In this document: positions 2,224-5,720 of the stretch, one piece after another
Layout of the letters: each line of letters opens with the position of its first letter
Numbering within the stretch: position 1 is the first letter of the stretch
IMG/VR virus record: IMGVR_UViG_2671180846_000005
Length of the DNA stretch: 5,720 nt
Origin: a virus
Taxonomy: Duplodnaviria > Heunggongvirae > Uroviricota > Caudoviricetes
Reading direction: 5' to 3' (one strand)
Translations under genes and position numbers: made by a program
Notes under the pieces: generated by a model
Told to the model about the DNA's origin: nothing
Database searches by the model: none
What the model saw: the letters and a program-made list of their open reading frames with translations, nothing else

Positions 2224-2397
2224 ATGCAGCGTGTGGCCGGGAAAAACCGTTACCCCATTGATGTGGTGAAAATCCCGATGGCGGTGCCGCTTACCACGGC
2301 GTTTAAACAGAATATTGAACGGATACGGCGTGAATGTCTTCCGAAAGAGCTGGGCTATGCGCTGCAGCATCAACTGAGAATGGTAATAAAGCGATGA
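2224..2397 (+). CDS. Z: Tail completion protein Z (lambda-type allele), 3' fragment; the continuation of 459-805
   Basis: Open in frame from 2224 to TGA at 2395-2397: [57 protein letters not shown]. Together with 459-805 this gives a lambda-length Z missing only ~20 codons, about the size of one N-run. Confidence 0.85.
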   Translation: MQRVAGKNRYPIDVVKIPMAVPLTTAFKQNIERIRRECLPKELGYALQHQLRMVIKR

Positions 2398-2789
2398 AAC
2401 ATACTGAACTCCGTGCAGCCGTACTGGATGCACTGGAGAAGCATGACACCGGGGCGACGCTTTTTGATGGTCGCCCCGCTGTTTTTGATGAGGCGGATTT
2501 TCCGGCAGTTGCCGTTTATCTCACCGGCGCTGAATACACGGGCGAAGAGCTGGACAGCGATACCTGGCAGGCGGAGCTGCATATCGAAGTTTTCCTGCCT
2601 GCTCAGGTGCCGGATTCAGAGCTGGATGCGTGGATGGAGTCCCGGATTTATCCGGTGATGAGCGATATCCCGGCACTGTCAGAGTTGATCACCAGTATGG
2701 TGGCCAGTGGCTATGACTACCGACGCGACGATGATGCGGGCCTGTGGAGTTCAGCCGATCTGACTTATGTCATTACCTATGAAATGTGA
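2394..2789 (+). CDS. U: Tail terminator protein U, complete, 131 aa
   Basis: ATG at 2394 overlaps the Z stop (ATGA), TGA at 2787-2789. [131 protein letters not shown] matches lambda gpU as recalled. The tracked start at 2334 is an in-frame upstream extension with no SD and is rejected. Confidence 0.92.
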
Positions 2790-2796
2790 GGACGCT

Positions 2797-3537
2797 ATGC
2801 CTGTACCAAATCCTGTAATGCCGGTGAAAGGTGCCGGGACCACCCTGTGGGTTTATAAGGGGAGCGGTGACCCTTATGCGAATCCGCTTTCAGACGTTGA
2901 CTGGTCGCGTCTGGCAAAAGTTAAAGACCTGACGCCCGGCGAACTGACCGCTGAGTCCTATGACGACAGCTATCTCGATGATGAAGATGCGGACTGGACT
3001 GCGACCGGGCAGGGGCAGAAATCAGCCGGAGATACCAGCTTCACGCTGGCGTGGATGCCCGGAGAGCAGGGGCAGCAGGCGCTGCTGGCGTGGTTTAATG
3101 AAGGTGATACCCGTGCCTATAAAATCCGCTTCCCGAACGGCACGGTCGATGTGTTCCGTGGCTGGGTCAGCAGTATCGGTAAAGCGGTGACGGCGAAGGA
3201 AGTGATCACCCGCACGGTGAAGGTCACCAATGTGGGACGCCCGTCGATGGCAGAAGATCGCAGCACGGTCACAGCGGCAACCGGCATGACCGTGACGCCT
3301 GCCAGCACCTCGGTGGTGAAAGGGCAGAGCACCACGCTGACCGTGGCATTCCAGCCGGAAGGCGCAACCGACAAGAGCTTCCGTGCGGTGTCTGCGGATA
3401 AAACAAAAGCCACCGTGTCGGTCAGTGGTATGACCATCACCGTGAAAGGTGTTGCTGCAGGCAAGGTCAACATTCCGGTCGTATCCGGTAATGGTGAACT
3501 TGCTGCGGTTGCAGAAATCACTGTCACCGACAGTTAA
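2797..3537 (+). CDS. V: Major tail tube protein V, complete, 246 aa, including a C-terminal Ig-like domain
   Basis: GAGGA at 2788-2792, ATG at 2797, TAA at 3535-3537. [33 protein letters not shown]...[10 protein letters not shown] matches lambda gpV as recalled, with the same length. The tracked start at 2767 is an upstream extension overlapping U. Confidence 0.93.
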
Positions 3538-3552
3538 TCCGGAGAGTCAGCG

Positions 3553-3975
3553 ATGTTCCTGAAAACCGAATCATTTGAACATAACGGCGTGACCGTCACG
3601 CTTTCTGAACTTTCAGCCCTGCAGCGTATTGAGCATCTCGCCCTGATGAAACGGCAGGCAGAACAGGCGGAGTCAGACAGCAACCGGAAGTTTACAGTGG
3701 AAGACGCCATCAGAACCGGTGCTTTTGTGGTGGCGATGTCCCTGTGGCATAACCATCCGCAGAAGACAAAGCAGCCTTCCATGAATGAAGCCGTTAAACA
3801 GATTGAGCAGGAAGTGCTTACCACCTGGCCCACAGAGGCAATTTCTCATGCTGAAAACGTGGTGTACCGGCTGTCCGGTATGTATGAGTTTGTGGTGAAT
3901 GATGCCCCTGAACAGGCAGAGGACGCCGGGCCTGCAGAGCCTGTTTCTGCGGGAAAGTGTTCGACGGTGAGCTGA
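3553..3975 (+). CDS. G: Tail assembly chaperone G, complete, 140 aa
   Basis: GGAGAG at 3541-3546, ATG at 3553, TGA at 3973-3975. MFLKTESFEHNGVTVTLSELSALQRIEHLALMKRQAEQAESDSNRKFTVEDAIRTGAFVVAMSLWHNHPQ... matches lambda gpG as recalled. Confidence 0.9.
   Translation: MFLKTESFEHNGVTVTLSELSALQRIEHLALMKRQAEQAESDSNRKFTVEDAIRTGAFVVAMSLWHNHPQKTKQPSMNEAVKQIEQEVLTTWPTEAISHAENVVYRLSGMYEFVVNDAPEQAEDAGPAEPVSAGKCSTVS
3951..3957 (+). promoter_or_regulatory. Slippery heptamer GGGAAAG (G GGA AAG in the G frame): programmed -1 ribosomal frameshift site producing the G-T fusion
   Basis: The heptamer lies 16 nt upstream of the G stop. The -1 frame is open from 3957 (GTG) to 4391 and encodes the T moiety. This arrangement is the well-known lambda G/GT frameshift. 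Confidence 0.8.
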
Positions 3976-4391
3976 GTTTTGCCCTGAAACTGGCGCGCGA
4001 GATGGGGCGACCCGACTGGCGTGCCATGCTTGCCGGGATGTCATCCACGGAGTATGCCGACTGGCACCGCTTTTACAGTACCCATTATTTTCATGATGTT
4101 CTGCTGGATATGCACTTTTCCGGGCTGACGTACACCGTGCTCAGCCTGTTTTTCAGCGATCCGGATATGCATCCGCTGGATTTCAGTCTGCTGAACCGGC
4201 GTGAGGCTGACGAAGAGCCTGAAGATGATGTGCTGATGCAGAAAGCGGCAGGGCTTGCCGGAGGCGTCCGCTTTGGCCCGGACGGGAATGAAGTTATCCC
4301 CGCTTCCCCGGATGTGGCGGACATGACGGAGGATGACGTAATGCTGATGACAGTATCAGAAGGGATCGCAGGAGGAGTCCGGTATGGCTGA
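3957..4391 (+). CDS. T: Tail assembly protein T reading frame, expressed only as the C-terminal part of the gpGT frameshift fusion (fusion spans 3553-4391)
   Basis: -1 frame relative to G, open 3957-4391 with TGA at 4389-4391. VFDGELSFALKLAREMGRPDWRAMLAGMSSTEYADWHRFYSTHYFHDV... No independent SD or ATG; it overlaps the G 3' end and the H 5' end exactly as in lambda. Confidence 0.85.
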   Translation: MFDGELSFALKLAREMGRPDWRAMLAGMSSTEYADWHRFYSTHYFHDVLLDMHFSGLTYTVLSLFFSDPDMHPLDFSLLNRREADEEPEDDVLMQKAAGLAGGVRFGPDGNEVIPASPDVADMTEDDVMLMTVSEGIAGGVRYG

Positions 4392-5720
4392 ACCGGTAGG
4401 CGATCTGGTCGTTGATTTAAGTCTGGATGCGGCCAGATTTGACGAGCAGATGGCCAGAGTCAGGCGTCATTTTTCCGGTACGGAAAGTGATGCGAAAAAA
4501 ACAGCGGCAGTCGTTGAACAGTCGCTGAGCCGACAGGCGCTGGCTGCACAGAAAGCGGGGATTTCCGTCGGGCAGTATAAAGCCGCCATGCGTATGCTGC
4601 CTGCACAGTTCACCGACGTGGCCACGCAGCTTGCAGGCGGGCAAAGTCCGTGGCTGATCCTGCTGCAACAGGGGGGGCAGGTGAAGGACTCCTTCGGCGG
4701 GATGATCCCCATGTTCAGGGGGCTTGCCGGTGCGATCACCCTGCCGATGGTGGGGGCCACCTCGCTGGCGGTGGCGACCGGTGCGCTGGCGTATGCCTGG
4801 TATCAGGGCAACTCAACCCTGTCCGATTTCAACAAAACGCTGGTCCTTTCCGGCAATCAGGCGGGACTGACGGCAGATCGTATGCTGGTCCTGTCCAGAG
4901 CCGGGCAGGCGGCAGGGCTGACGTTTAACCAGACCAGCGAGTCACTCAGCGCACTGGTTAAGGCGGGGGTAAGCGGTGAGGCTCAGATTGCGTCCATCAG
5001 CCAGAGTGTGGCGCGTTTCTCCTCTGCATCCGGCGTGGAGGTGGACAAGGTCGCTGAAGCCTTCGGGAAGCTGACCACAGACCCGACGTCGGGGCTGACG
5101 GCGATGGCACGCCAGTTCCATAACGTGACGGCGGAGCAGATTGCGTATGTTGCTCAGTTGCAGCGTTCCGGCGATGAAGCCGGGGCATTGCAGGCGGCGA
5201 ACGAGGCCGCAACGAAAGGGTTTGATGACCAGACCCGCCGCCTGAAAGAGAACATGGGCACGCTGGAGACCTGGGCAGACAGGACTGCGCGGGCCTTCAA
5301 ATCCATGTGGGATGCGGTGCTGGATATTGGTCGTCCTGATACCGCGCAGGAGATGCTGATTAAGGCAGAGGCTGCGTTTAAGAAAGCAGACGACATCTGG
5401 AATCTGCGCAAGGATGATTATTTTGTTAACGATGAAGCGCGGGCGCGTTACTGGGATGATCGTGAAAAGGCCCGTCTTGCGCTTGAAGCCGCCCGAAAGA
5501 AGGCTGAGCAGCAGACTCAACAGGACAAAAATGCGCAGCAGCAGAGCGATACCGAAGCGTCACGGCTGAAATATACCGAAGAGGCGCAGAAGGCTTACAA
5601 ACGGCTGCAGACGCCGCTGGAGAAATATACCGCCCGTCAGGAAGAACTGAACAAGGCACTGAAAGACGGGAAAATCCTGCAGGCGGATTACAACACGCTG
5701 ATGGCGGCGGCGAAAAAGGA
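4384..5720 (+). CDS. H: Tail tape measure protein H, N-terminal ~445 codons; the gene continues beyond the window end
   Basis: AGGAGG at 4370-4375, ATG at 4384 overlapping the T stop (ATGGCTGA). The frame is open from 4384 to the last base of the window, which is why it is absent from the stop-delimited ORF track. MAEPVGDLVVDLSLDAARFDEQMARVRRHFSGTESDAKK... matches lambda gpH as recalled. Confidence 0.92.
   Translation, partial: MAEPVGDLVVDLSLDAARFDEQMARVRRHFSGTESDAKKTAAVVEQSLSRQALAAQKAGISVGQYKAAMRMLPAQFTDVATQLAGGQSPWLILLQQGGQVKDSFGGMIPMFRGLAGAITLPMVGATSLAVATGALAYAWYQGNSTLSDFNKTLVLSGNQAGLTADRMLVLSRAGQAAGLTFNQTSESLSALVKAGVSGEAQIASISQSVARFSSASGVEVDKVAEAFGKLTTDPTSGLTAMARQFHNVTAEQIAYVAQLQRSGDEAGALQAANEAATKGFDDQTRRLKENMGTLETWADRTARAFKSMWDAVLDIGRPDTAQEMLIKAEAAFKKADDIWNLRKDDYFVNDEARARYWDDREKARLALEAARKKAEQQTQQDKNAQQQSDTEASRLKYTEEAQKAYKRLQTPLEKYTARQEELNKALKDGKILQADYNTLMAAAKK

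Follow-up and report, generated by a model that had tools for sequence, protein, structure and literature searches.

The closest described counterpart of the locus analysed here is the G/G-T gene pair of phage lambda, in which a -1 ribosomal frameshift gives rise to gpGT in addition to gpG. The lambda shift is the subject of work by Levin, Hendrix and Casjens (1993) and by Xu, Hendrix and Duda (2004, 2013, 2014), as cited in PMC5009743; for lambda, site, mechanism and role all date from 1993, and the finding was extended to long-tailed phages in 2004. The slippery sequence of lambda G/GT is listed as GGGAAAG in Table 1 of PMC3296357, and G_GGA_AAG is among the highly shift-prone heptamers in E. 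coli (PMC5009743). The zero frame is kept in ~96% of cases in lambda, and gpG and gpGT are both required (PMC3296357), with a gpG:gpGT ratio of ~30:1 that is crucial to tail assembly (PMC5009743). The tape measure protein is the binding partner of gpG and of the G portion of gpGT; the T portion binds the major tail protein to recruit it, and gpG and gpGT are both absent from the virion (PMC5009743). Loss of tRNA-Lys thiolation results in more shifting and a lower phage yield (PMC7618472). The running text of PMC3296357 (section 9) prints the site as GGGTTTG, with the codons GGT-TTG, while Table 1 of the same paper prints GGGAAAG; the former appears to be an error because the sequence, PMC7618472 and other reviews support GGGAAAG.

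Here, we analysed a stretch of 5,720 nt of DNA from a tailed phage (IMG/VR record IMGVR_UViG_2671180846_000005), which we refer to as the window. We are highly confident that positions 3951-3957 of the window represent the programmed -1 ribosomal frameshift site of lambda-type G-T tail assembly chaperone genes. Site, mechanism and role are already known and hold no new biology; the feature is a textbook one and very widespread. The assignment is useful chiefly for annotation, since T appears in the output of gene callers and in several reference records as a gene of its own that starts from GTG, while the correct product is the 279-aa GT fusion. With the site recognised, the block is also confirmed as a tail assembly module of the lambda type whose chaperone pair is intact. 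The features of the region are the following.

2797..3537, + strand: gene V, major tail tube protein, equivalent to lambda V at 8955-9695
3553..3975, + strand: gene G, tail assembly chaperone of 140 aa, the normal in-frame product (PF06894, TIGR01674)
3951..3957, + strand: slippery heptamer G GGA AAG, the same in lambda, 434 and HK630
3957..4391, + strand: T segment, 144 sense codons and TGA, forming only the C-terminal part of gpGT (PF06223, TIGR01715)
join(3553..3957, 3957..4391), + strand: gpGT coding region, 279 aa, with a translation that carries both Pfam domains
3966..4034, + strand: tentative predicted RNA structure, with a stem 3966-3972/4028-4034 enclosing a hairpin 3991-4006/4011-4026
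3973..3975, + strand: TGA stop of the G frame, which shifted ribosomes would bypass
4384..5720, + strand: gene H, tape measure protein, of which the first 445 codons are present, open to the end of the window

The window contains a single GGGAAAG, on the + strand. The G frame runs from the ATG at 3553 to the TGA at 3973-3975, and with codons that begin at positions congruent to 1 mod 3, the heptamer is parsed as G GGA AAG, in agreement with a preliminary description of this DNA. The spacer between the heptamer and the G stop is 15 nt (3958-3972), and the distance of 16 nt given in that description is a valid count as well, since the first base of the stop lies 16 nt past the last base of the heptamer. 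The first codon past a -1 slip is GTG at 3957-3959, from where the -1 frame comprises 144 sense codons and is closed by TGA at 4389-4391; the figure of 145 codons proposed earlier holds if the stop or the re-read AAA is counted. Gene H starts with ATG at 4384-4386, equivalent to lambda position 10542, and this start and the T stop are both within ATGGCTGA. The earlier claim that the T stop overlaps the H start is correct for the frames, which overlap by 8 nt, but not for the stop itself, which lies 3 nt past the H ATG and has no bases in common with it. Translation across the slip gives the junction ...AEPVSAGK followed by VFDGELSFALKL, and in this way bears out the anticipated passage from PVSAGK to VFDGELSFALK. 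The resulting fusion has 135 + 144 = 279 aa. Trypsin would cleave precisely at the G-T junction (K|V), and the diagnostic tryptic peptide would be the T-frame peptide VFDGELSFALK.

The locus is nearly identical to that of lambda. Positions 2224-5720 of the window align without gaps to lambda 8382-11878 with 98.3% identity over 3497 nt, and the gene order V-G-T-H is collinear with lambda 8955-11878. The G-T region has 20 nucleotide differences from lambda over 839 nt, none of them in the heptamer. Around the heptamer, the sequence matches lambda in the preceding 30 nt, except at 3933, and in the following 40 nt; in other words, the closest differences are 18 nt upstream and 41 nt downstream. 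At the protein level, G differs from lambda G by five substitutions (L59V, Q73K, M74Q, N117D and T122A), the T residues are identical (144/144) with three nucleotide differences that are each silent in the T frame, and the portion of H in the window is 99.3% identical to lambda H. Thus, the window copy shares with lambda G/G-T the heptamer, the frame, the spacing to the stop, the junction peptide, the T sequence, the ATGGCTGA overlap and the gene order, and differs from it in five G residues and 20 of 839 nt.

A lone GGGAAAG is no more than expected by chance: the expectation is 0.76 copies per window, and at least one copy was present in 107 of 200 dinucleotide-preserving shuffles. What sets the site apart is its context. 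The genes of the window contain three in-frame heptamers of the form X XXY YYZ in ~1275 codons, and GGGAAAG is the only one of the three with a long -1 frame. In the genes of the window, -1 runs have a median length of 9 codons, and the 144 codons of this frame also exceed the 95th percentile (84 codons); the T frame closes exactly at the next gene, H. The combination of frame, position, long -1 frame and conservation is not due to chance. In H, seven consecutive Gs (4671-4677) are parsed in frame as G GGG GGG, with a -1 frame of 83 codons after them; this run is identical in lambda (aligned stretch 10818-10848) and is probably incidental.

The two frames also belong to the expected protein families. 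For G, the matches are PF06894 (lambda tail assembly chaperone G) at 4.9e-59 and TIGR01674, an NCBIfam equivalog (215 bits, cut-off 74); for the -1 frame, they are PF06223 (minor tail protein T) and TIGR01715, likewise an NCBIfam equivalog (189 bits, cut-off 77). In PHROGs, G corresponds to positions 1-142 and T to positions 140-285 of phrog_32165, which has 290 positions. Thus, the G and T halves tile this family and have the same appearance as deposited GT fusion proteins.

We considered the conservation of the site at two evolutionary distances. The close relatives are 80 IMG/VR loci that were obtained in an alignment search with G and are 96-100% identical, and the distant relatives were taken from tblastn hits in a phage collection. 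Among the close relatives, GGGAAAG is kept at the same position in 79 of 80, and the 144-codon -1 frame is present in 78 of those 79. The remaining close relative at the heptamer position (L072) has AGGAAAG, with which re-pairing of the P-site tRNA is lost. In another close relative (L031), T carries an in-frame deletion of 45 nt between two GACTGGC repeats, and this deletion removes RAMLAGMSSTEYADW together with the 3' half of the predicted RNA structure.

At larger distances, a slip site is present at the homologous position and in the G frame in 17 lineages, in which G is 31-100% identical to G of the window and which comprise phages of E. coli, Salmonella, Klebsiella and Vibrio. The site is kept in the diverged lineages, with G proteins that are only 31-69% identical to that of the window. 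The -1 frame after the slip site has 113-152 codons in the 17 lineages, and the heptamers are distributed as follows.

GGGAAAG: lambda group, PhiR12_1, Turner
AAAAAAG: VT1-Sakai, Stx1 and Stx2 phages
GGAAAAG: N15, HK225, phi80, mEp213, LLS, Klebsiella Kp4865-4, cdtI, Salmonella Fels-1
CCCAAAA: Vibrio phage HY01

The spacing between heptamer and stop is 15 nt in 12 of the 17 lineages and 3 nt in four (cdtI, Fels-1, Kp4865-4 and HY01). N15, phi80, HK225, VT1-Sakai, cdtI and Fels-1 share with the window a slip site at the homologous position and a chaperone that is followed in the -1 frame by a T domain, both encoded between the major tail and tape measure genes. However, these phages have G GAA AAG or A AAA AAG and not G GGA AAG, and in those with G GAA AAG, full re-pairing of the P-site tRNA is impossible, which leaves A AAG as the only part of the heptamer shared with the window. 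The records of N15 (gene 14/15) and LLS carry a slippery-site annotation, and those of phage 434 and LLS annotate a joined GT CDS. The lambda-type G-T frameshift proposed in the preliminary description is backed by the near-identity to lambda, the family matches and this conservation of the site. As a side observation, the record of the Campylobacter phage CJLB-4 (MW057783.1, 48,361 bp) has a G that is 96.4% identical to lambda G at lambda-like coordinates and looks like a lambda sequence deposited under the name of another host.

The same comparison bears on whether T could be an independent gene that starts at GTG 3957, next to which the heptamer would be incidental. This is how the mechanical listing of open reading frames begins T, and the RefSeq record of lambda and PGAP-annotated E. 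coli genomes give a separate T CDS from the GTG. However, most relatives have no start codon at the GTG position, which reads GTC, GCA, GCC, GCC, GCC, GTC, GCC and CTA in them, and at codon 16, where the T frame has its first ATG here, the N15, phi80 and cdtI groups have Phe. Because neither the GTG codon nor the first ATG is conserved, T is without a conserved start of its own; by contrast, the slip site is kept in all 17 lineages. Moreover, there is no Shine-Dalgarno-like sequence at a usable distance from the GTG, as GGGAAA directly abuts it, and gpGT is described as a frameshift product (PMC5009743, PMC3296357). We therefore consider independent initiation of T highly improbable and favor a T segment that is translated by frameshifting from G.

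A change of frame could also arise in the transcript, if RNA polymerase rather than the ribosome slipped and deleted one A. The site does include a short run of As, and there are six As in the relatives with AAAAAAG. However, 3951-3957 has three As and three Gs only, while far longer homopolymers are required for slippage of the polymerase to be productive. The heptamer also fits the pattern of two-tRNA re-pairing exactly, and the shift in lambda is treated as ribosomal and responds to modification of tRNA-Lys (PMC3296357, PMC7618472). Slippage by the polymerase is, therefore, hardly a serious contender against a ribosomal shift.

For the ribosomal shift, we propose a mechanism that follows the lambda model. 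Most ribosomes would keep the frame through G GGA AAG and terminate at the TGA at 3973-3975, giving rise to the 140-aa gpG. A small fraction (~4% in lambda) would slip back by one base while the P site holds tRNA-Gly paired to GGA and the A site holds tRNA-Lys (anticodon mnm5s2UUU) paired to AAG; upon slipping, tRNA-Gly would re-pair on GGG and tRNA-Lys on AAA. The shifted ribosomes would miss the G stop and add 144 codons to yield the 279-aa gpGT. By analogy to lambda, H, the tape measure protein, would then become coated with many copies of gpG and a few of gpGT, the T domain would recruit the major tail protein V, and the tail tube would polymerise around H, with neither chaperone staying in the virion. 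We infer from the lambda literature and the near-identity to lambda that the window copy shifts, and likewise at what rate and to what end in tail assembly. In the window, we found no sequence features that contradict a -1 frameshift.

Some frameshift sites are assisted by stimulatory signals. In E. coli dnaX, the slip site is A AAA AAG with a Shine-Dalgarno-like element upstream and a stem-loop downstream, and ~50% of ribosomes shift with the two stimulators. The two sites are read by the same host translation system, and the same tRNA-Lys slips on A AAG (PMC5009743), but the shift of ~50% at dnaX compares with ~4% for lambda G-T, and the window site is without a Shine-Dalgarno-like element within ~20 nt upstream. 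Specifically, the 20 nt upstream of the heptamer contain none of GGAG, GAGG and AGGA, with 3921-3950 reading ggacgccgggcctgcagagcctgtttctgc; the GAGGA closest to the heptamer is at 3919-3923 and ends 27 nt upstream.

Downstream of the heptamer, the evidence for a structure is weak and mixed. The 83 nt past the heptamer are predicted to fold into the outer stem and hairpin listed above, with a z of -3.7 relative to shuffled sequences, and this fold begins 8 nt after the heptamer. The same minimum-energy fold is predicted for PhiR12_1, VT1-Sakai, N15, mEp213 and Kp4865-4 (z of -2.8 to -4.5). When 12 and 15 lineages were aligned, pairing held in 90-95% of cells compared to 19-46% in slid controls, with the predicted fold having been derived from the same related sequences that were used in these counts. 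The pair 3966:4034 is G-C, A-U or C-G depending on the group, and there are a few compensatory changes. We detected no synonymous constraint in the fold, with differences at 40% inside compared to 44% in the rest of T, and no clear sparing of paired third positions (10/14 versus 8/9 variable among 27 distinct sequences). The predicted fold is absent in cdtI and Fels-1, in which the slip site is kept, and a scan of 3800-4200 against Rfam at E ≤ 1 gave no match. The region of the fold encodes the most conserved peptide of T, LAREFGRPDWRAMLAGM, and this peptide alone accounts for much of the nucleotide conservation in 3966-4034. It is doubtful that the structure predicted at 3966-4034 tunes the efficiency of frameshifting as a conserved element of the lambda, N15 and phi80 groups. 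If it did, this would contradict the usual statement that the G-T shift of tailed phages works without stimulatory signals.

How the site is used in its host is a separate matter from how it works. The signal could be intact but a relic in a defective prophage, no longer serving tail assembly in its host, and several observations on other copies point in this direction. The 839-nt G-T segment is present in 3702 of 5426 complete E. coli genomes, in many cases more than once, and many of these copies likely belong to cryptic prophages. At a coverage of at least 80%, it occurs in 3691 of the 5426, and the median genome has two copies. It is 100% identical in many chromosomes of Shiga-toxin-type E. 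coli. The block of the window that holds G-T is 99.83% identical to a prophage in E. coli E2865 (NZ_AP018808.1, 637097-649935; L011), which carries a 100% identical G-T copy and is visibly defective: an element of the IS66 family (ISCro1-type) adjoins a truncated gene for an S49 head protease, and the K homolog (C40 peptidase) has an internal stop. Because the identical copy in E2865 sits in a defective prophage, an intact site is not proof of a working phage, and the earlier statement that this copy appears functional would, as judged from sequence, apply to the signal only. On the other hand, U, V, G, T and the start of H are all open in the window and 98-100% lambda-like at the protein level, and the genes that are broken in E2865 lie outside the window. 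Altogether, we regard a relic as unlikely, though as an alternative that deserves to be kept in mind; it concerns the use of the site, and the assignment of 3951-3957 as a G-T frameshift site is the same in either case.

The window covers part of the tail module only and consists of four pieces that are joined by runs of N at 248-327, 806-855 and 2174-2223. Relative to lambda, the pieces are the following.

1-247: lambda 7391-7640, 93.6% identity
328-805: lambda 7846-8323, 95.8% identity
856-2173: lambda 7783-9142 (FII'-Z-U-V'), a diverged second allele, 75.9% identity
2224-5720: lambda 8382-11878 (Z'-U-V-G-T-H'), 98.3% identity with no gaps, containing the G-T site

The third piece is an alternative allele of a region that is also present in the second and fourth pieces. 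The N runs do not match the lengths that they replace, as 80 N stand for ~205 nt, and 50 N, 1318 nt and another 50 N stand for ~58 nt. The window looks like a scaffold in which two lambdoid prophages have been flattened into one sequence. An exact 42-mer from the third piece had no match in a collection of genome contigs and recurs in 15 IMG/VR contigs, all of them free of N runs and without the composite order. The second allele at 856-2173 is 100% identical to positions 461-1778 of one IMG/VR contig (L100), and because this contig has no N runs, we infer that the second allele belongs to a separate prophage. The preliminary description had attributed the single slip site in the window to the second allele block stopping in V', and this explanation fits the alignment: the block ends at the equivalent of lambda 9142, inside V. 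The contig with the second allele continues into a native G-T site (stretch 2357-2779), in which the heptamer is A AAA AAG at 2755-2761, followed by a -1 frame of 152 codons; thus, a second site would have used a different heptamer.
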